DNA of 64,000 nt from NCBI GenBank assembly GCA_045605605.1, contig JAZUQH010000049.1, forward strand, positions 12,799-76,798, read 5' to 3'. The stretch's first letter is position 1; each line of letters opens with the position of its first letter. A program made the position numbers and the translations under genes. Shown here piece by piece: positions 33,263 to 59,250 of this stretch. The stretch is from Acutalibacteraceae bacterium. GTDB lineage: Bacteria; Bacillota; Clostridia; Oscillospirales; Acutalibacteraceae. The notes under the pieces are model-generated. The model did no database searches and was not told where the DNA came from. It was given only the letters and a program-made list of their open reading frames with translations.

Positions 33263-34294
33263 TTATTCTATCTCATCTGCAAGTTTTAAAATCAGCTTTT
33301 CGGTCTTTTCCCATCCGAGACATGGGTCGGTTATGGATTTACCGTAAATATGCTCACCTATCTTTTGGGCGCCGTCCTCAATATAGCTTTCTATCATAAT
33401 ACCCTTTACTAATTTCTTAATATCGTTATTATGGTTTCTGCTATAAATAACATCCTTGGCAATTCTTATCTGCTCAAGATATTTTTTGCCTGAGTTTGCG
33501 TGATTGGCATCCACTATTGCGGCGGGATTCAGAAGGCCTGATTTTTCATAATCCTCATATAGTCTTACAAGGTCCTCATAATGATAGTTGGAAACGCATC
33601 TTCCGCCGCCATCCACATAGCCTCTGAGTATTGCGTGAGCCATAGGGTTGCCGTTTGAGTGTACCTCCCAGCCTCTGTATATAAAGGTATGCTTACTCTG
33701 AGCCGCCTTTATAGCGTTCATCATAACACTGTTATCGCCACCCGTTGGGTTTTTCATACCTACGGGAACATTGAGTCCGCTGGCAGTTAGGCGGTGCTGT
33801 TGATTTTCAACCGAACGGGCACCCACTGCAACATAGGCTAAAAGGTCGGATAAATAACGGTGATTTTCGGGGTACAGCATCTCATCGGCACAGGTAAAGC
33901 CATAATCCTTAAGGGCGGTCATATGAAGCTCTCTTATGGCTACTATACCCTTAAGCATATCGGGACGTTCATCGGGATTCGGCTGATGAAGCATACCCTT
34001 ATAGCCCTCACCCGTTGTGCGAGGCTTGTTTGTGTAAATACGGGGAATAATAAATATCTTATCCTTTACCTCTTGCGAAACCTTTTTAAGACGGCCTATA
34101 TAATCAAGCACCGCCTCATTATTATCGGCAGAGCAAGGCCCTATAACCAAAATAAGCTTATCCGATTTGCCCTCGAAAATATCCTTGATTTCTTGGCTTC
34201 TTTGCTCTTTAACGATGGCTGACGCCTCATCTAAAGGGTACTGCTCCTTAACCTCTTTAGGCACAGGTAACTTTCTTTCAAAATCTAAATTCAT
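33263..34294 (-). CDS. 3-deoxy-7-phosphoheptulonate (DAHP) synthase, class I-alpha (AroF/G/H type)
   Basis: It has LILVIGPCS, KPRTT and YGKSITDPCLGWEKTE, and is collinear with E. coli AroG. Confidence 0.9.
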   Translation of the reverse strand: MNLDFERKLPVPKEVKEQYPLDEASAIVKEQRSQEIKDIFEGKSDKLILVIGPCSADNNEAVLDYIGRLKKVSQEVKDKIFIIPRIYTNKPRTTGEGYKGMLHQPNPDERPDMLKGIVAIRELHMTALKDYGFTCADEMLYPENHRYLSDLLAYVAVGARSVENQQHRLTASGLNVPVGMKNPTGGDNSVMMNAIKAAQSKHTFIYRGWEVHSNGNPMAHAILRGYVDGGGRCVSNYHYEDLVRLYEDYEKSGLLNPAAIVDANHANSGKKYLEQIRIAKDVIYSRNHNNDIKKLVKGIMIESYIEDGAQKIGEHIYGKSITDPCLGWEKTEKLILKLADEIE

Positions 34295-35160
34295 ATATCC
34301 TTCCTCTTTCCGAAATGTTTTCTTCTCTCAGAGGAAAGTCGCATCATTTGGCGCATATCCTCACGCTCATCATTTTTTATATGCTCATAAAGCTTATCAA
34401 AAGCCCTTCTATATGAATCCATTTCATTTAGTAAGGCCTTTTTATTTTCTAAAAACAGCTCACTCCACATCTCATCGTTAATATCGGCAATTCTTGTTAA
34501 ATCCCTAAAAGAGTCGCCCGTATATTTAACAAGGTCGGGATCCCCGTTTGCGCACATAAGAGATACTGCAATACAGTGGGTAAGCTGAGATAAAAAGGCT
34601 ATCATTTTATCGTGCTCTTCGGGAGAAAGCACAGAAATATTGGCAAAGCCTAAGCTTTCACCCAAAGCCTTGCAGATGTCTATTGCCTCTTCGGTATTTT
34701 TTTCAGTGGGAACAACAATATAGTTTGCTCCTTTAAATATTTCGGGGTCGCTGTTTTTTATACCGCTTGCCTCTCTACCTGCCATAGGGTGCGCCGAAAT
34801 AAATTCTGCCTTTAATTTTTCCTGAACTAAAAAAACTATACTTCCCTTAACACCCGTAACATCGGTAACAACAGTATCCTCATCAATAAGGTGACCGTAA
34901 TTTTCCACCCACTCCAAAAATATTTTAGGATAAAGAGCGAAGATTATAAGGTCTGCCTCTTTTATAAGTCTCTCTTCTACCTCAGTAGTGCCATAGGCTA
35001 TCATTTTTTCCTTTAAAGCGAATTCTATATCCTCTTGGTTTTTGGTAATAGCGCTTACCTTATAGCCGTTACTGCTCAGCGCCTTTGCATAGCTTCCGCC
35101 GAGAAGACCAAGACCTACTATTAAAATATCTAAATTTTTATCAAGTTTCATTGCTAACAA
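34291..35160 (-). CDS. tyrA: prephenate dehydrogenase
   Basis: It has an IVGLGLLGGSYAKAL Rossmann motif and AHPMAG. The length is 289 aa. Confidence 0.85.
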   Translation of the reverse strand: MLAMKLDKNLDILIVGLGLLGGSYAKALSSNGYKVSAITKNQEDIEFALKEKMIAYGTTEVEERLIKEADLIIFALYPKIFLEWVENYGHLIDEDTVVTDVTGVKGSIVFLVQEKLKAEFISAHPMAGREASGIKNSDPEIFKGANYIVVPTEKNTEEAIDICKALGESLGFANISVLSPEEHDKMIAFLSQLTHCIAVSLMCANGDPDLVKYTGDSFRDLTRIADINDEMWSELFLENKKALLNEMDSYRRAFDKLYEHIKNDEREDMRQMMRLSSERRKHFGKRKDI

Positions 35161-36343
35161 ATCCTAATGTGCCAATTTTTTCAAAAAAGTCAGGGAAGCT
35201 TTTGCTTACCGCTTCGGCTCCCTTTATTTCTCCGCCAGTCACAGAGCAAAGAACTGCAAGTGACATTACTATTCTATGGTCATTATGTCCCCATAGCGCT
35301 TCCTTTGGGGCGTAAAGCTTGCCCTTTCCTACCGTAACGCTGTTTTCTTCCACGGTTAATTCTATGCCGAATTTTGAAAGCTCTCGCTTCATAGCATCGG
35401 CTCTATCGCTTTCCTTTATTTTAAGCCTTTTGGTGCCTTTAAAATAAGCTCCTCCCAAAGCGGCTGAGAGGGCAAACATAATGGGCGCTAAATCGGGGCA
35501 ATCCGATAAATCAAAGCTCTTTACCCCGTTTTTTAAATCCTCATACATTCTAAGATAAACCCTATCACCCTGAAGACTTTTTTCATCAAGCCCTAAAACC
35601 TTAACACTTCCGCCTAAAAGATTAAAGGCATCAAGAAAGGCGGCATTTGAATAATCACCCTCAACGGTTACATTCTTATTTCCATACTTCTGATTACCCT
35701 TAATAAAATATCCGTAAGCCTCTTCCTTTATCTCTATACCGAAACGCCTTAGAGTATTTAAAGTCATATCAATATACGGCTTACTTTCGAGTCTACCCTC
35801 TATCACTATTTTGCTATCCTCGGAAATCAGCGGCAAAGTGAAAAGAAGCCCCGTTATAAACTGACTTGAAATATCGCCTCTAACATTATATTCTCCGCCT
35901 TTTAGTTTTCCGCAAACAGTAATACTCTCGCTTGTGCGGTTAAACATAATTCCCTGCTTTTTGCATATATCCTCATATATATCCTGAGGTCTTTCCATAA
36001 GCCTCGGGGAACCTTTAAGAGTAACACTTTTTCCCGAAAGCATACAAAGGGGCAATAAAAATCTAAGGGTACTGCCCGATTCAAAACAATCAATCACAGT
36101 GTTTTCAGGTATATTAAAGGGATTAAATCCGCCTATAATTATGGCATCATTATTTTTTTCTATATTTGCGCCAAGGTCCTTAAGACAATTAAGGGTTGCC
36201 TTAATATCCTCGCTCTCGGCAATATTAAAAACCTTGCTTTCCTTACTTAGCGCCGCCGAAATCAAGCTCCTGTGGGCATCGGATTTTGAGGGGGGCGCAT
36301 TAGTCACACCCGAAAGGACAGACTTTTTAACGGTTACGGTCAT
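35141..36343 (-). CDS. aroA: 3-phosphoshikimate 1-carboxyvinyltransferase (EPSP synthase)
   Basis: PPSKSDAHRSLI, LFLGNAGTA-equivalent regions and KESDR are present. Confidence 0.9.
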   Translation of the reverse strand: MTVTVKKSVLSGVTNAPPSKSDAHRSLISAALSKESKVFNIAESEDIKATLNCLKDLGANIEKNNDAIIIGGFNPFNIPENTVIDCFESGSTLRFLLPLCMLSGKSVTLKGSPRLMERPQDIYEDICKKQGIMFNRTSESITVCGKLKGGEYNVRGDISSQFITGLLFTLPLISEDSKIVIEGRLESKPYIDMTLNTLRRFGIEIKEEAYGYFIKGNQKYGNKNVTVEGDYSNAAFLDAFNLLGGSVKVLGLDEKSLQGDRVYLRMYEDLKNGVKSFDLSDCPDLAPIMFALSAALGGAYFKGTKRLKIKESDRADAMKRELSKFGIELTVEENSVTVGKGKLYAPKEALWGHNDHRIVMSLAVLCSVTGGEIKGAEAVSKSFPDFFEKIGTLGFVSNET

Positions 36344-36780
36344 TATTTATTCCCAACCTTTTCTAAAATTGAGTCAATCGCCTCAAGGTAGCCCTCAAAT
36401 CCGTGACCTGTTATAGTCTTAAAGCAGTAGTATTTAACAAAGCTTATCTGCCTGAATTCTTCCCTTGAGGGTACATCTGAAATATGCACCTCAACTGCAG
36501 GGATATTAACAGATTTTAAAGCATCAAGAATTGCAACGCTCGTATGGGTAAAGGCGGCTGGATTTATAACAATACCCTCAAATTTACCGAGTGCCTTTTG
36601 AATTTCTGTTACAATATCTCCCTCATAGTTAGACTGAAAGAGCTTAACCTTTACTTTCTTTGCTTTGGCATAATTTCTTATGCCCTTTTTAAGCGCCTTA
36701 TAGGTTTTTTCACCGTAAATTTCAGGCTCTCTTATACCTAACATATTAAGATTAGGTCCGTTAATTACAAGAATTTTCAT
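36343..36780 (-). CDS. aroQ: type II 3-dehydroquinate dehydratase
   Basis: MKILVINGPNLNMLGIREPEIYG with NPAAFTHTSVA. Confidence 0.92.
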   Translation of the reverse strand: MKILVINGPNLNMLGIREPEIYGEKTYKALKKGIRNYAKAKKVKVKLFQSNYEGDIVTEIQKALGKFEGIVINPAAFTHTSVAILDALKSVNIPAVEVHISDVPSREEFRQISFVKYYCFKTITGHGFEGYLEAIDSILEKVGNK

Positions 36781-38015
36781 TTCATAAATTCCTCTAAAAT
36801 CATATTTGCAAAATCCTCGGGGGTTTTATCTCCGCAAACTGCGAAATCACAGCTTGATTTATAAATTTCATATCGCTCGTTATACCTTTTTTGAAGGTCG
36901 ATTTTATTACTTGAAAGGGGACGGTCAGGGGTAACAGTCAGGCTCTCTAAGGGTCTATCTATAAAATAAACTCTGCCGTTCTTTTTTAAGTTATCTACAT
37001 TTTCTTTTCTAAGGATAGCTCCGCCGCCTGTGGCTAAAACTAAATTCTGCCTTGAAGAAATGGTTTCTATAGCCTTGCTTTCAAGGGTTCTGAAGCCGCT
37101 CTCTCCCATTTCTTTGAAAATCTGAGGAATATCCTTTCCGAAAAGCCTTACGATTTCTTCATCTGTATCAACAAACTCTTTTTTTAGTTTATCTGCTAAA
37201 ATTCTGCCTACCGTGGTTTTTCCGCTTGATGGCATACCGATTAAAACGATATTTTCTTTTTCCTTAACCATCTCGTTATAAATGCGGTCAACCTTTTTTT
37301 CGGCTACCTTTTCACCCACAAACTCTTCTGCCGCAAAGGCTGCCTGAGAGATAAGCATATAAAGTCCGCCAATAGCCTTAATTCCCTTTTCCCTTGCCTT
37401 TAAAACAAGCTCACTTCTAAGGGGGTTATAAACTGCATCTATAACTCCCGAAAGGGATGGGAATTTATCTATATCAATAGCCGCTCCGCTTATATTCGGA
37501 TGCATTCCGCAGGGGGTGGTATTTATGATAATCTCAGCATCGGTATGGTTTTTAAGAGCCTCATCATAGGTTATCGTATCCTCGCTATCACTTCTTGAAA
37601 GTCTGTAAACTTCCTTAGCGCCAAGACTTTGCGCCACCGCCTTTGCGGTTTTTGAGGTTCCGCCCGAGCCTAAGATAAGCACCTTTTTATTTTTGATTTC
37701 TATCCTTGCTTTTTTGATTAAAGCCGTAAGACCTGAAAAATCAGTATTAAAGCCGTAAAGCTTACCGCCCTTATTCACGATGGTATTTACAGCGCCTATA
37801 CTTTTCGCCCTTTCATCAATAAAATCGAGATAAGGGATAACATCCTGCTTATAGGGTATAGTCACGTTGATAGCCTTAAAATCCTTTGCCTTCATAAAGG
37901 CATCCAAATCCTCTTTGGCTATCTCGAGAAGCTCATATTTATAATCAAAAAGCTTAGGGTGAATCTGAGCCGAAAAGCTATGACCTAACCTTTCGCCTAT
38001 ACAACCGTATTCCAT
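36777..38015 (-). CDS. bifunctional shikimate dehydrogenase / shikimate kinase (AroE-AroK fusion)
   Basis: The N-terminal AroE part has GSGGTSKTA and NVTIPYK. The C-terminal kinase part has the P-loop GMPSSGKTTVGR. Total length is 412 aa. Confidence 0.85.
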   Translation of the reverse strand: MEYGCIGERLGHSFSAQIHPKLFDYKYELLEIAKEDLDAFMKAKDFKAINVTIPYKQDVIPYLDFIDERAKSIGAVNTIVNKGGKLYGFNTDFSGLTALIKKARIEIKNKKVLILGSGGTSKTAKAVAQSLGAKEVYRLSRSDSEDTITYDEALKNHTDAEIIINTTPCGMHPNISGAAIDIDKFPSLSGVIDAVYNPLRSELVLKAREKGIKAIGGLYMLISQAAFAAEEFVGEKVAEKKVDRIYNEMVKEKENIVLIGMPSSGKTTVGRILADKLKKEFVDTDEEIVRLFGKDIPQIFKEMGESGFRTLESKAIETISSRQNLVLATGGGAILRKENVDNLKKNGRVYFIDRPLESLTVTPDRPLSSNKIDLQKRYNERYEIYKSSCDFAVCGDKTPEDFANMILEEFMK

Positions 38016-38017
38016 TT

Positions 38018-39112
38018 TTATTTATTACCTAACCAATCTGTTCCGTATTTCAATGCCAACATATCTGCAAGAGCTATGGCTGTTATACTGTCAACTACCA
38101 CACGGGCTCTGTGAACAATGCAAGGGTCGTGTCTGCCCTTAGCAGAAAGGATAGTATTGCTTTTTTCTTTAAGATTTACACTTTCCTGCTCCTTAGAAAT
38201 GGTAGGTGTCGGACGCATTGCCACACGGAAGATTATAGGACTTCCGTTAGAGATTCCGCCGTTTATTCCCCCGCTATTGTTGGTTTTGGTTTTAACGGAG
38301 CCGTCTTCCATATAAAAGGCATCGTTAGCCTCGCTACCCTTCATATCGCTAATACCGAAGCCTGCGCCAAACTCAACTCCCTTAACACCGGGGATGGAGA
38401 ATAAGGCGTGGGATAAAACGCCCTCCAAAGAATCAAACCAAGGCTCGCCTATACCTGCCTCTAAGCCTAAAACAGCGGTTTCGAGCACTCCGCCAACGCT
38501 ATCGCCCTCGGCTTTAACTGACTCGATTTTTGCAGTCATTTCTTCACCCTTGTTGCTATCAAGAACGGCAAAGGTTAGGCTGTTTAGCTTATCTATATCC
38601 TTTTGGTAATCTGAAAAATCTCTATCCGTTACCCCTGCGCATTTTGCAATATGGGTACCAATGCTAATACCCTTTTCATTAAGAGCAGAAATAACTATAG
38701 CGCCTGCCGCTACTATTGCCGCAGTAATACGTCCGCTAAAATGACCGCCTCCGCAAAAGTTTTCAAAGCCTTTATATTTTATATGGGCGGCAAAATCCGC
38801 ATGAGAAGGACGGGGTATATCCATTTCCTCGCCGTAATCGGCAGAACGGGTATCCTTATTTGGAATAATTATGCAAAGGGGTGAGCCCGTTGTAAAGCCA
38901 TTAAATACTCCGCTTACTATCTTAAACTCATCCTGCTCATTTCTTGGTGTTGAAATCTTGCCGCTTGGACGGCGAAGAGAAAGCTTTTCTTTTATAAACT
39001 CTTCATCTATCTTAATACCTGCGCTAAGGCCGTCAATAACCGCGCCTATGGCTTCCCCGTGGCTTTCACCGAAAAGGGTAATAGCTACCTGATTTCCGAA
39101 GGTGTTTTTCAT
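38018..39112 (-). CDS. aroC: chorismate synthase
   Basis: FGESHG, RPSHADF and GRHDPC motifs are present. Confidence 0.95.
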   Translation of the reverse strand: MKNTFGNQVAITLFGESHGEAIGAVIDGLSAGIKIDEEFIKEKLSLRRPSGKISTPRNEQDEFKIVSGVFNGFTTGSPLCIIIPNKDTRSADYGEEMDIPRPSHADFAAHIKYKGFENFCGGGHFSGRITAAIVAAGAIVISALNEKGISIGTHIAKCAGVTDRDFSDYQKDIDKLNSLTFAVLDSNKGEEMTAKIESVKAEGDSVGGVLETAVLGLEAGIGEPWFDSLEGVLSHALFSIPGVKGVEFGAGFGISDMKGSEANDAFYMEDGSVKTKTNNSGGINGGISNGSPIIFRVAMRPTPTISKEQESVNLKEKSNTILSAKGRHDPCIVHRARVVVDSITAIALADMLALKYGTDWLGNK

Positions 39113-40116
39113 AGTTTCTCCGCCTTTCCTATTTCTTCTTTTAATTCCTCAAAGGATATTTCTGAAAGTGTAAAGCTTCCTATCCTTTCAACCCTTACCG
39201 CCGTAATGCTATCCCCCGATTTTTTCTTATCGTGACTCATAGCATCAATAATTTTTTCTGCCGAAACATTATGACTTATAGGCAGCGATAAGCTATCAAG
39301 CACCTTTAAAAGCCTCTTCCTTACCTCTTCTGAGCACATAGGAAGCATTCCGAGGGCTACACATTCTCCGTGGTAAAGGTTAGGAGAATTCACCTCGATA
39401 GCGTGGCCAACCGTATGGCCGAAATTAAGGGTTTTTCTAAGACCTGATTCCTTTTCATCCTCTTCTACAACCCTTTTCTTTATGTACAAAGAGCGCTCAA
39501 TAATGGTATCAAGGTCCTCTTCGGCTATACCGTCTTCAAAAAGGGAAAACAGTTCGCTATCAAAGGTAAGCGCCATTTTAACGCTTTCGGCAAGTCCGTT
39601 TGAAATCTGCCTTTTCGGTAGCGTTTTTAAAGTATCGGTATCAATAATTACGCACTTAGGGGGATAAAAAGCCCCCACGATATTTTTAACCGAGCAAAAA
39701 TCTATAGCCGTTTTTCCGCCTATGGAGGAATCCACCTGAGAAAGCACAGTGGTGGGAATGTTATAAAAATCAATACCCCTCATAAAGCAGGCGGCGGCAA
39801 AGCCCGCCATATCCCCTGCTACTCCGCCACCTACTGCTACTACGCAGTCGGTACGGGTAAAGCCTTTTTTAACAAGGCTTTCAAGTATTTCCTTAAAGGT
39901 ATCAAAATTCTTAGACTGCTCACCCTCAGGGAAGGTAAATATATATCCTTCTTTGGAGGCGTCGCAAACGGTTTTTGCATATATTTCGGGAACGCCGCTA
40001 TCGGTAACGATAAGCACCTTTCTGTTCAGATTAAGATACTCTCCTACCTTTGATAGCGCACCCTTTTCAAGTATTATGTTGTAACCTGAGGAAGATGTCT
40101 TAACAGGTATAACCAT
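39109..40116 (-). CDS. aroB: 3-dehydroquinate synthase
   Basis: GGGVAGDMAGFAAA and the metal ligands NFGHTVGHAIE are present. Confidence 0.9.
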   Translation of the reverse strand: MVIPVKTSSSGYNIILEKGALSKVGEYLNLNRKVLIVTDSGVPEIYAKTVCDASKEGYIFTFPEGEQSKNFDTFKEILESLVKKGFTRTDCVVAVGGGVAGDMAGFAAACFMRGIDFYNIPTTVLSQVDSSIGGKTAIDFCSVKNIVGAFYPPKCVIIDTDTLKTLPKRQISNGLAESVKMALTFDSELFSLFEDGIAEEDLDTIIERSLYIKKRVVEEDEKESGLRKTLNFGHTVGHAIEVNSPNLYHGECVALGMLPMCSEEVRKRLLKVLDSLSLPISHNVSAEKIIDAMSHDKKKSGDSITAVRVERIGSFTLSEISFEELKEEIGKAEKL

Positions 40117-40125
40117 AAGCTTCTC

Positions 40126-41235
40126 CTAAATTTTAATTTCTTTTTCAAAGCTGCCAACTATTTTTATATTGTTACAGCACTCGCTAAGCTCCTTAAGCAT
40201 TGACTTACCCTCGGGGCTGTTTATATTACCCTCACCCTCGGCGTAGAAGTAATAATCCCATATAAGCTCCTTAGTAGGTCTGCTTTTAAGGGCTTTAAGG
40301 TTAAAGCCGTGGTTACCTATAACCGAAACTGCTCTACCTAATGAGCCTGCGGCATTTTTAACCGTAAAGAGCATTACAAAATGATTATCGTTTTTGCTAA
40401 CCGACTTCTGAGCCTTTGAGAAAACTGCAAAACGGGTTGTGTTTATATTACTCTGATTTATATTTGCTTCAAGTATTTTGAGGCCGAATTCCTCTGCCGC
40501 CTCGGCGCTGCCTATGGCTGCAATACTTAAATCTCCCTTTTCGGCTACCTCTTTAGCGGCTACGGCTGTGTTAACCGCTTCTTTTGCCTCGAAGCCGTGC
40601 TTTTCAATATAAGCGGCGCACTGACCTAAAGCCTGAGGATGACTTAAAACCGTTTTGATACCATCCTTAGTGGCGCCCTTAAGGGCAAGTAAATTCTGTG
40701 TTATCTCGGCATCATAAATTCCGTTTATGTAAAGATTTCCAAAAAAGGAAAGATCCATTACCTTGCCAACATCACCGTTGAAGCTGTTTTCTATGGGAAG
40801 TAAAGCGCAGTCGCACTCCCCCCTGTCAACCGCCTCGTAGGCTTCCTTGAAATCAGAGAAGGGTACGATATTGGCATCGGGGAATATCTTTTTTGCAGCA
40901 AGAGAGGCAAAGGCGCCCTTAACACCGCTATAGGCTACCCGCATACCGTCAAGAAGCCTATGCTGTAAAGCCTTTGATAAATCGATGTTATTTCTTAAAA
41001 ATGAGGTGTAATAGCTTTTATACTCCTCGTTTTTAAGCTCAGCCACATTTTTCTTTATTATTACTTCTTCTCGGGTAAAATCATCCACCGGTATACCGTG
41101 CTCTTTTTTATAGGCGGCTACCAATTTTGCGGCATCCATTCTCTCTTCAAAAAGCCTTGCCATCTCGGCATCCACTTTATTTATAATTTCTCTTGCTTTT
41201 AAAAGGTCATTCATTACTTTGACTATACTCCTCAT
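40126..41235 (-). CDS. pheA: bifunctional chorismate mutase / prephenate dehydratase
   Basis: An N-terminal CM_2 helix region is followed by the PDT domain (TRF..., ESRP-like KSRPTK) and a C-terminal ACT domain. The true start may be the internal ATG at 41214. Confidence 0.85.
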   Translation of the reverse strand: MRSIVKVMNDLLKAREIINKVDAEMARLFEERMDAAKLVAAYKKEHGIPVDDFTREEVIIKKNVAELKNEEYKSYYTSFLRNNIDLSKALQHRLLDGMRVAYSGVKGAFASLAAKKIFPDANIVPFSDFKEAYEAVDRGECDCALLPIENSFNGDVGKVMDLSFFGNLYINGIYDAEITQNLLALKGATKDGIKTVLSHPQALGQCAAYIEKHGFEAKEAVNTAVAAKEVAEKGDLSIAAIGSAEAAEEFGLKILEANINQSNINTTRFAVFSKAQKSVSKNDNHFVMLFTVKNAAGSLGRAVSVIGNHGFNLKALKSRPTKELIWDYYFYAEGEGNINSPEGKSMLKELSECCNNIKIVGSFEKEIKI

Positions 41236-42406
41236 AAAGTTTTTTAAATGCGGGCAGAGAATTTTTTATCTGCTCATATGATACACAGTAGGCTATTCTC
41301 ACATATCCTTCCACGCCGAAGCTATCGCTGGGAACTAAAAGGAGCTCGTGTTTTTTAGCCTTTTCGCAAAATGCCTTTGAATCCTTTTCTAAAGCTTTAA
41401 CGAAAAGATAAAATGCCCCGTCGGGATGCGCCGCAGTATAACCCATATCTTTAAGAGAGCTATACAAAAGCTCACGGTTTTTCTTATATTCTACTATTTC
41501 AGGCTCTAAATCAAGGCACTGGGCCACAGTAAATTGCAAAAGGCTCGGCGCGCAAACAAAGCCTAAGCTTCTTCCTGCACCGCAAACGGCAAAATATATA
41601 TCCTCCCACGCCTTTGATTTGGGACTTACAAGAATATATCCTATTCTTTCTCCGGGAAGAGAAAGGGATTTACTGAAGGAATAGCAAACAATGGTATTAT
41701 CATAAATATTAGGGATAAACACGGGCTTTTTATCAGTGTAAACAAGCTCTCTGTAAGGCTCATCGCTTATGATATAAATATCGTTTCCGAATTTCTCTTG
41801 GTTTTTGTTTAAAAGAGCGGTAAGCTCATTTAATTCTTTTTCGCCGAAGATAACACCCGAAGGATTATTAGGGGAATTTATAATAACTGCCTTTGTATTT
41901 TTATTTATAGCTTTTTCTAAAGCCGATATATCAAGGGCGAAGCTATCCTCTTTGCATTTAACTTCAACTGCTTTAGCCCCTGCATTTGCTATAAAAACCT
42001 TATATTCGGGAAAATAAGGAGCTAAAATAATTATTTCATCTTCTTTGCCCGAAACAATAGCCTTAAGGGATATTGTAAGAGAAGCGGCGGCGCCGCAGGT
42101 CATATAGATATTATCTGCCTCGCACGAAAGCCCGAAACGGCTTTTGATATTTTGGGCGATTTTCTCTCTCACCCTCACATCCCCCTGAGCAGAGGTATAT
42201 CCGTGAAGAAGGGTGGGCGGGGTTTCTTTAATAAGGCGCTGCATAACCTCATTTACCTTATCAGGCGATGGAATGCTCGGATTACCAAGGCTAAAATCGA
42301 AAACGTTATTCTCGCCAATAACTGCCTTTCTCTTACGGGAATATTCAAATATCTGCCTTATAACCGATGGCTCTCTTCCAAGTGACAGCATTTCCTCCGA
42401 AATCAT
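41207..42406 (-). CDS. class I/II pyridoxal-phosphate aminotransferase (aromatic/aspartate type)
   Basis: It has the SFSKSLSLPGERIGY PLP-lysine motif and NPSNPSG-like NSPNNPSG. The start is placed at ATG 42406, behind AAGGGAGGG. The 49 extra codons in the track ORF cover the leader and terminator. Confidence 0.85.
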   Translation of the reverse strand: MISEEMLSLGREPSVIRQIFEYSRKRKAVIGENNVFDFSLGNPSIPSPDKVNEVMQRLIKETPPTLLHGYTSAQGDVRVREKIAQNIKSRFGLSCEADNIYMTCGAAASLTISLKAIVSGKEDEIIILAPYFPEYKVFIANAGAKAVEVKCKEDSFALDISALEKAINKNTKAVIINSPNNPSGVIFGEKELNELTALLNKNQEKFGNDIYIISDEPYRELVYTDKKPVFIPNIYDNTIVCYSFSKSLSLPGERIGYILVSPKSKAWEDIYFAVCGAGRSLGFVCAPSLLQFTVAQCLDLEPEIVEYKKNRELLYSSLKDMGYTAAHPDGAFYLFVKALEKDSKAFCEKAKKHELLLVPSDSFGVEGYVRIAYCVSYEQIKNSLPAFKKLYEEYSQSNE

Positions 42407-42422
42407 TTTAACCCTCCCTTTC

Positions 42423-42470
42423 AAATAAAAAAGCCGCAACTCTATGCAATAAATGCACAAACTGTTGCGG
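42423..42470 (-). terminator. intrinsic terminator inside the aro-operon leader (attenuator)
   Basis: On the minus strand CCGCAAC (42470-42464) pairs with GTTGCGG (42440-42434), with an inner TGCA/TGCA extension. C-TTTTTT-A-TTT follows, 17 nt before the operon RBS. Confidence 0.6.
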
Positions 42471-42491
42471 ACCGTCCCAATTCTATTCCAA

Positions 42492-42566
42492 TTATCTCGC
42501 AGAAGATAAAGAAGAGTCAGGGCAGTCCAAATTAAAGTAATAAAAATACGCATATCTGCTAAACAT
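42492..42566 (-). CDS. candidate 24-aa Tyr/Phe-rich leader peptide MFSRYAYFYYFNLDCPDSSLSSAR
   Basis: On the minus strand the ATG is at 42566. AAGGAG (42582-42577) sits 10 nt upstream and TAA is at 42494-42492. Codons 5-11 are TAT GCG TAT TTT TAT TAC TTT. Confidence 0.4.
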   Translation of the reverse strand: MFSRYAYFYYFNLDCPDSSLSSAR

Positions 42567-42601
42567 TACTTGCCAACTCCTTATATCTTCAAATTTATTA
42601 T

Positions 42602-42630
42602 ATATTACTATCATATATATAATTTGTCAA
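42602..42630 (-). promoter_or_regulatory. sigma-A-type promoter of the aromatic supraoperon
   Basis: On the minus strand TTGACA (42630-42625) is followed by a 17-nt spacer and TAATAT (42607-42602). Confidence 0.5.
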
Positions 42631-42735
42631 GTTTTTTTGCATAAATGCGGGAGTTTTTGATAAACCCCCGCATTTTTTATTGATAAAATAAATAAACCCT
42701 GAGGCTTACCTCAGGGTTATTACTTTTAAATTTTA

Positions 42736-53345: not shown

Positions 53346-53418
53346 GGCTGGGGAATAGGGATTCGAACCCCAACAAACAGAGTCAGAGTCTGTCGTGCTA
53401 CCGTTACACAATTCCCCA
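53345..53418 (-). tRNA. tRNA-Gln (anticodon CTG), CCA encoded
   Basis: Hand-folded 74-nt cloverleaf: acceptor TGGGGAA/TTCCCCA, anticodon stem ACAGA/TCTGT with loop CTCTGAC, T-arm TGGGG-TTCGAAT-CCCTA, discriminator G, then CCA. Confidence 0.9.
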
Positions 53419-58951: not shown

Positions 58952-59040
58952 TGGCGGAGAGGATGGGATTCGAACCCATGTGGAGTTGCCCCCAAACGGT
59001 TTTCAAGACCGCCTCGTTATGACCACTTCGATACCTCTCC
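58952..59040 (-). tRNA. tRNA-Ser (anticodon TGA), CCA encoded
   Basis: Hand fold of 89 nt: acceptor GGAGAGG/CCTCTCC, anticodon loop CTTGAAA, T-arm ATGGG-TTCGAAT-CCCAT. Confidence 0.9.
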
Positions 59041-59084: not shown

Positions 59085-59152
59085 CCAAAAAAGGAATTTA
59101 TTTTAAAATAAATTGACTTTGCGGTAAAAAGGTGTATAATATAAATATCAAT

Positions 59153-59250
59153 TCAGAGTAGATAGCCTTGCGTGAAGTGCTGTGAGGACGGGGAGTTGCC
59201 TCGCAGACGAAGGGTTTAAACCTGCGGTTTGGCTGTCGCATCCCGCTGAC
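59153..59250 (+). promoter_or_regulatory. THF (tetrahydrofolate, folT-motif) riboswitch
   Basis: AGAGTAGAT..GCGTGAAGTG..GGACGGGGAGTTG..ACGAAGG..GCGGT..CGCATCCCGCTGA is collinear with the E. siraeum THF aptamer as I remember it. The promoter TTGACT (59113-59118) and TATAAT (59135-59140) lie upstream, and folT lies downstream. Confidence 0.85.

Follow-up and report, generated by a model that had tools for sequence, protein, structure and literature searches.

How is a nine-gene operon for phenylalanine (Phe), tyrosine (Tyr) and shikimate-pathway synthesis controlled in an Acutalibacteraceae bacterium, and what does the short leader ahead of its first gene contribute? We addressed this question in a 64,000-nucleotide (nt) window, the whole stretch of DNA analyzed, which belongs to a genome of 1.97 Mb with 40% G+C. 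All coordinates refer to this window, and both the leader and the operon (33263..42420) lie on its minus strand. An earlier interpretation made from the letters alone, hereafter the sequence-only reading, had proposed Phe/Tyr-sensing leader-peptide attenuation. Conservation, reading frame and three covarying helices support that proposal, and the leader is very probably a ribosome-mediated leader-peptide transcription attenuator that would sense charged tRNA-Tyr and tRNA-Phe and gate the entire Phe/Tyr and shikimate operon. The anatomy and conservation of the leader are computed, and its regulatory response is read from the geometry.

Inspection of the minus strand places a sigma-70-type promoter at 42602..42630, with TTGACA (42630-42625) and TAATAT (42607-42602) separated by a 17-nt spacer. 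The promoter scores 10 of 12 matches in a promoter scan of the window, and the transcript probably starts near 42596. A TTGACA and TAnAAT box at identical spacing recurs in eight other leaders (L002, L003, L012, L014, L015, L020, L021 and L022). Downstream are the Shine-Dalgarno (SD) sequence AAGGAG (42582-42577) and a leader open reading frame (ORF) of 24 codons plus TAA (42492..42566), which opens at ATG 42566, encodes the predicted product MFSRYAYFYYFNLDCPDSSLSSAR and closes at TAA 42494-42492. Codons 5-11 (42534..42554) form the regulatory run TAT GCG TAT TTT TAT TAC TTT, or Tyr-Ala-Tyr-Phe-Tyr-Tyr-Phe, where four Tyr and two Phe occupy seven codons; an extra Phe stands at codon 2. The terminator arms CCGCAAC (42470-42464) and GTTGCGG (42440-42434) follow, and then C, T6 (42432-42427), A and T3. 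This stem is two pairs longer at its bottom, with GG-U-CCGCAAC opposite GUUGCGG-CU. A simple terminator scan of the window did not list the leader hairpin, an omission that we attribute to the internal bulge and the long stem. The operon ribosome-binding site (RBS) AAGGGAGGG (42420-42412) and ATG 42406 of a class I/II aminotransferase gene (42406-41207, Pfam) come next. The sequence-only reading had located every one of these parts, from promoter to operon start codon, where we find them; the leader stop codon is separated from the hairpin by 21 nt rather than the 22 nt it gave.

Four segments of the leader RNA can pair in three alternative ways. Folding of truncated transcripts and computation of local duplexes revealed these helices in all of the first 15 leaders collected. 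Segment 1 (42567..42591) is the 5' end of the transcript, comprising the SD AAGGAG and the spacer, and it pairs with segment 2. Segment 2 (42501..42530) consists of UUGGACUGCCC and the sequence after it, and has either segment 1 or segment 3 as its partner. Segment 3 (42455..42489) is shared, where 42489-42467 pairs with segment 2 and 42474-42455 forms the terminator 5' arm. Segment 4 (42423..42448) holds the terminator 3' arm (42448-42431), which runs into the U tract.

Helix 1:2 joins the transcript 5' end, including the leader SD, to the 3' part of segment 2, such that the start codon and the aromatic run are enclosed in its loop. In helix 2:3, UGGACUGCCC pairs with GGGACGGUCCG and occupies GGUCCG (42473-42468), taking the bottom 5-6 nt of the terminator 5' arm; GGACTGCCC at 42528-42520 and GGGACGGTCC at 42477-42468 are both present. 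An intrinsic terminator whose stem ends several nt short of its U tract should be disabled. With GGUCCG held in helix 2:3, the stem would end short of the U tract, and the terminator should therefore be disabled. What the sequence-only reading offered as a possible upstream pairing is this antiterminator, which overlaps the terminator 5' arm and covaries; the convincing antiterminator helix that it could not find by eye emerges from the local duplexes. For the window copy, the predicted energies are -20.2 kcal/mol for the terminator hairpin 3:4 (z -4.1 versus shuffles), -22.5 kcal/mol for the antiterminator hairpin 2:3 (z -3.9) and -24.1 kcal/mol for the helix 1:2 hairpin (z -3.4), the 1:2 duplex itself reaching -20.9 kcal/mol.

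To learn how widely this arrangement occurs, related loci were collected. A search of 40 relatives with the aminotransferase as query returned 25 orthologous loci, 15 of which carry a leader that combines a short ORF and its Tyr/Phe run with a terminator and two boxes, the conserved GGACUGYC and a complementary one. The other 10 loci lack the leader. Eight of them were inspected and have unrelated upstream sequence, and in the one genome checked the element instead precedes pheA. A covariance model built from 15 orthologous leaders (R1) detects one significant copy in the organism's own genome, copies in 19 of 151 genomes sampled within the same order, spanning 9 families, and copies in 6 of 150 genomes sampled across the class, a tandem pair among them. 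It also detects copies at 22 of 75 loci from named assemblies of gut and rumen Clostridia, with titles that read Acutalibacteraceae, Oscillospiraceae, 'Ruminococcus' and Clostridia metagenome-assembled genomes of gut or rumen. The first gene after the element is always one of aromatic biosynthesis, being the aminotransferase of a pheA-aro operon, a DAHP synthase or a chorismate mutase-prephenate dehydratase. The RNA therefore travels with aromatic biosynthesis and not with one particular gene. In genome G222, from another family of the class, two complete attenuators stand in tandem directly before a DAHP synthase gene (L126:1501-1866, plus strand), each with its own Phe/Tyr (F/Y) leader ORF and terminator.

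Comparison of 48 distinct leaders (alignment A3) indicates conservation of what a translating ribosome would use. The ORF with its Tyr/Phe run and the terminator are present in all 48, which is the outcome that the sequence-only reading had asked of an alignment of orthologous leaders. Every leader likewise has an SD-like site and a start codon, with an ORF 18-30 codons long. Of the 558 residues that separate the initiator from segment 2, 313 are Phe or Tyr, and not one of the 48 leader ORFs contains a Trp codon. The distance from the start codon to GGAC is 32, 35, 38, 41, 44 or 47 nt, so that the reading frame relative to segment 2 is constant; leaders L012 and L014, at 39 nt, are apparent exceptions produced by a one-column alignment shift. 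Columns of the core run read T-[A/T]-[T/C], which encodes Phe or Tyr only, where position 1 is T in 42-48 of the 48 leaders and position 3 is almost never the A or G that would yield Leu or a stop. In every leader the stop codon itself is placed between segments 2 and 3, within the 2:3 loop.

Pairing is conserved along with the coding features. The GGACUG of segment 2 is nearly invariant. Helix 2:3 is 83% paired across the 48 leaders, compared with 25-38% when slid, and six pairs have changed on both sides. For the terminator base, 98.5% of cells are paired, a share that drops to 24-55% on sliding the partner. According to RNAalifold and pair counts, this base extends to AGUCCGC:GCGGAUU or AGCCCGC:GCGGGCU, and its U:A to C:G exchange divides the leaders 7 versus 7 in the first set and 27 versus 18 in the larger set. 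Column covariation is impossible to assess for helix 1:2, where both MAFFT and the model alignment leave segment 1 out of structural register. This helix was instead tested free of alignment by comparing the duplex energies of cognate and non-cognate segment 1/segment 2 combinations. Among 31 representatives below 70% identity, the mean is -16.8 kcal/mol for cognate partners, -12.1 kcal/mol for non-cognate partners and -9.3 kcal/mol for shuffled ones, and the observed mean was not attained in any of 20000 permutations of the partners, a count whose independence is overstated by relatedness. At least half of the SD bases fall inside helix 1:2 in 42 of the 48 leaders. By these sequence comparisons, all three helices covary. 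A further feature concerns the base of segment 3 that both structures share (A3 columns 94/178 and 178/247), which is C rather than U in ~18 of the 48 leaders. The C variant pairs as G:C in the terminator and is mismatched as A.C in the antiterminator, and the leaders that carry it seem tuned to stronger termination.

This anatomy corresponds to that of a classical attenuator. Its parts are a short ORF rich in regulatory codons with an SD and a start codon, whose translation is predicted, an intrinsic terminator between that ORF and the first structural gene, and an antiterminator exclusive of the terminator; dependence on ribosome position is suggested by the geometry. When Phe and Tyr are plentiful, the ribosome would cross segment 2 and reach the stop codon inside the 2:3 loop. 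A ribosome there would keep helix 2:3 from closing, such that 3:4 would form and transcription would end. When charged tRNA-Phe or tRNA-Tyr is scarce, the ribosome would stall in the run, within the 1:2 loop and adjoining the SD. Helix 1:2 would then not form, free segment 2 would capture segment 3 once this is made, the terminator base would be blocked and RNA polymerase would enter the operon. With no ribosome loaded, helix 1:2, being the earliest to be transcribed, would also be the earliest to form, and the terminator would come after it. That is to say, the layout would be the classical one of four segments with one twist, where the position of the ribosome is read by which loop holds it. 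Phe or Tyr also occurs at codon 2 or 3 in 32 of the 48 leaders (e.g. MF..., MLF..., MY...). A ribosome stalled at such a codon would cover the SD and segment 1 directly.

Several observations weigh against attenuation by the leader peptide, or limit how far its evidence reaches. The codon run, taken by itself as a statistical signal, was rejected: at least six Phe/Tyr codons in seven occur at 75 places in the organism's own genome, 41 of them in short frames. The sequence-only reading was right to caution that TTT and TAT codons arise by chance, and because the run alone is not beyond chance, the case rests on conservation. The leaders compared are relatives, so shuffle and permutation statistics overstate their independence. 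Folding of the window copy at equilibrium leaves the two outcomes near isoenergetic, with the antiterminator state at -46.6 and the terminator state at -44.6 kcal/mol, and masked equilibrium folding predicts helix 2:3 without any ribosome. By these folding models, the window copy may have a high level of basal read-through. Nucleotides were masked to model the states with no ribosome, with a stalled one and with one at the stop codon, a procedure that does not discriminate between states and is not used as support. Of the alternative folds that the sequence-only reading wanted computed, the three helices were found, but equilibrium energies fail to separate the states, so that switching would need a kinetic or steric basis. 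Finally, if the ribosome stalled as late as the final one or two aromatic codons, its A site being 8-11 nt upstream of GGAC, it would itself lie over the 5' end of segment 2. Such late stalls would mask segment 2, and therefore only stalls at earlier codons fit the model, which predicts productive ones at codons 2-9.

In a second explanation, the hairpin would terminate constitutively, with some leakage, and would serve only to shield the operon from the transcript of the upstream acyl carrier protein gene (acpP, Pfam), while the ORF is translated without regulatory effect. Near isoenergetic terminator and antiterminator states in the window copy would suit a leaky terminator, as would the position of acpP, which ends only ~100 nt before the leader promoter. 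However, acpP has its own terminator at 42718-42695, and the leader therefore has its own promoter, which is conserved. A covarying antiterminator, a helix that pairs with the SD and a conserved aromatic run would all be needless for insulation, and an insulator would not accompany three different aromatic first genes. We regard this explanation as very unlikely.

A translation-independent RNA switch, whose helices would respond to a small molecule or an RNA-binding protein in the manner of a riboswitch or of TRAP/PyrR, would render the ORF incidental. The competing helices of the attenuator, however, already account for every conserved base, including the strong conservation of segments 2 and 3 (GGACUG and CAGUCCGC) that might otherwise recommend a switch, and the loops are not conserved. 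Helix 2:3 does form at equilibrium without a ribosome in the window copy, as a switch of this kind would allow; against this stand the frame, start codon, SD, stop position and T-[A/T]-[T/C] periodicity found in all 48 leaders, for which there would be no reason in an untranslated element. The search against catalogued RNAs points the same way. No Rfam family, and hence neither a T-box nor any riboswitch model that the sequence-only reading had named as a check, scores on the leader strand at E <= 10, and eight other family members return nothing at E <= 0.05. Phe_leader, Leu/phe_leader, His_leader, Trp_leader and Thr_leader do not reach their gathering thresholds on the leader; the only His_leader match, 30.6 bits versus a threshold of 49, lies on the opposite strand over the acpP terminator. 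Such a switch is highly improbable.

That the region codes for protein, either as an N-terminal extension of the aminotransferase (ATG 42553, a 448-aa ORF) or as a 24-residue functional micro-protein, is scarcely credible: 41207-42553 is one open frame in the mechanical ORF list, with ATG 42553 in frame with ATG 42406, and the peptide end shows a recurrent D-C-L/P motif, but the extension (41207-42553, minus strand) was rejected because it is not conserved in orthologues, whose open frames span 394 to 426 aa, a terminator and a strong RBS lie between the two ATG codons, the D-C-L/P codons are segment 2 (GGACUGYC) read in frame, and the peptide tail beyond them is not conserved.

What would the attenuator control? 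Pfam and ORF lists give an operon of nine genes in the order aminotransferase, chorismate mutase-prephenate dehydratase, aroB, aroC, aroE-aroK fusion, aroQ, aroA, tyrA and DAHP synthase, where tyrA encodes prephenate dehydrogenase (35160-34291, minus strand) and the DAHP synthase gene lies at 34294-33263 (minus strand). All nine genes are on the minus strand, with junctions that overlap or almost touch. The operon combines the common pathway with the Phe branch and the Tyr branch, and therefore suits a leader in which Phe codons are mixed with Tyr codons. The aroE-aroK fusion (36777-38015, minus strand) encodes 412 aa, in which a shikimate dehydrogenase N-terminal domain is joined to a shikimate kinase.

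Elsewhere in the window, a tetrahydrofolate (THF) riboswitch aptamer is found at 59152-59250 on the plus strand (85.5 bits versus a gathering threshold of 36), and tRNA genes lie at 53348-53418 and 58955-59040, both on the minus strand. The region 41200-42700 is recorded in DNA runs from sheep, bovine and other gut or faeces metagenomes of 14 studies, which suggests a ruminant or animal gut as the habitat of the organism.

Leader-peptide attenuation at this locus provides a concrete model in which many uncultured gut and rumen Clostridia, of the Acutalibacteraceae and neighbouring families, would control the whole Phe/Tyr pathway from one leader. The family is uncatalogued, with no Rfam entry, and the covariance model together with the 48 examples can be used for annotation. 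Such annotation has a practical side, as gene callers can mistake the leader, terminator and RBS for part of the aminotransferase gene. The understanding of attenuation itself is unchanged, given that the mechanism is classical and that attenuators with F/Y upstream ORFs (uORFs) were already predicted in Firmicutes.

Several known systems can be set beside this leader. In Firmicutes, RNA control of amino-acid genes is usually exerted by T-box leaders. Those for Tyr and Phe resemble the leader proposed here in responding to tRNA charging with a choice of terminator or antiterminator. They differ in binding uncharged tRNA directly and in needing Stem I and a specifier codon, and the T-box model (RF00230) has no match in the window at the gathering threshold, on the leader at E <= 10 or in eight relatives. 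No T-box was found upstream of the aminotransferase orthologues of other taxa either (Clostridium, Lachnospiraceae and Synergistaceae).

The pheL-pheA system of Escherichia coli, and the trpL/hisL class to which it is akin, share with the present leader a peptide of regulatory codons and four segments that form 1:2, 2:3 and 3:4; pheL-pheA also has an intrinsic terminator before a pheA-containing operon. In contrast to the mixed Tyr and Phe codons found here, pheL uses Phe alone. In the pheL/trpL/hisL class, the regulatory codons lie inside segment 1, whereas here segment 1 is the SD region and the codons occupy the 1:2 loop. The host of pheL-pheA is a gammaproteobacterium rather than a member of the Clostridia, and no Rfam leader family, including Phe_leader, which we take to be RF01859, matches the present leader at E <= 10. 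The diversity of pheL has been described (PMC3082878).

The aroR leader of the Corynebacterium glutamicum aroF operon, as far as its published description goes, is similarly a ribosome-mediated attenuator with an F-Y-F type consensus, and it accompanies DAHP synthase and shikimate genes. The study of this leader is reportedly that of Neshat et al. 2014. In its supplementary text, PMC6429828 states that the peptide and RNA structure of aroR, which belongs to Actinobacteria, differ from those of the Firmicutes motifs. Another motif, uORFC-13-1, was found upstream of aroF in Acholeplasma, where attenuation was proposed (Breaker laboratory, RNA Biol 2021, 'Comprehensive discovery of novel structured noncoding RNAs in 26 bacterial genomes', PMC8632094). 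By description it resembles our leader in that a promoter, an RBS, a short ORF containing Phe codons and a terminator next to it all precede DAHP synthase; it differs in being confined to Acholeplasma and environmental sequences and in carrying a U-run that codes for at least one Phe. His leader-peptide attenuators were proposed for some Firmicutes in 2022 (PMC9413887).

The closest likeness is to Firmicutes attenuators with F/Y-rich uORFs before shikimate genes, a computational prediction of Stav et al. (2019, BMC Microbiol 19:66, PMC6429828). In light of that 2019 report, the remark in the sequence-only reading that aromatic operons of Firmicutes are mostly under T-box or TRAP control is outdated. 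The passages of PMC6429828 on which we draw present uORF-12 and uORF-13 as 'aromatic amino acid attenuators' found from Clostridium novyi. The former has 1258 examples, mainly before transporters. The latter has 336, from Bacillales, Clostridiales, Thermoanaerobacterales, Negativicutes and environmental sequences, and about half of these precede aroF (DAHP synthase). Both motifs share with our leader a short F/Y-rich ORF that lies upstream of the stem of a terminator. For uORF-13, the short ORF is followed by the terminator stem and the F-Y-F stretch is placed 'within the loop of P1', which, compared by published description, is the geometry of helix 1:2. Like our leader, uORF-13 stands before aroF, tyrA and other shikimate genes and occurs in Clostridiales and environmental sequences. 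The paper describes P1 and the terminator, and the supplementary passages in question make no mention of an antiterminator 2:3, of SD sequestration or of a stop codon in the antiterminator loop. In four Clostridium sensu stricto genomes, R1 returned nothing significant, with matches only at E >= 0.09, and the DAHP synthase query had no match in two of these four genomes.

Two placements of the leader can be drawn from this comparison. One, which we hold only tentatively and consider rather doubtful, is that the decision depends on which loop the ribosome occupies and not on masking of segment 1, that the leader would also register whether any ribosome had loaded on the nascent transcript, so sensing both the capacity for translation initiation and the charging of Phe/Tyr-tRNA, and that it forms a lineage distinct from uORF-12 and uORF-13. 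The other takes the attenuator as a member of a described kind. Its F/Y architecture and gene context agree with uORF-13 insofar as the published description covers them, and the leader is a further case, possibly a subfamily, of the kind of attenuator already predicted in Firmicutes.

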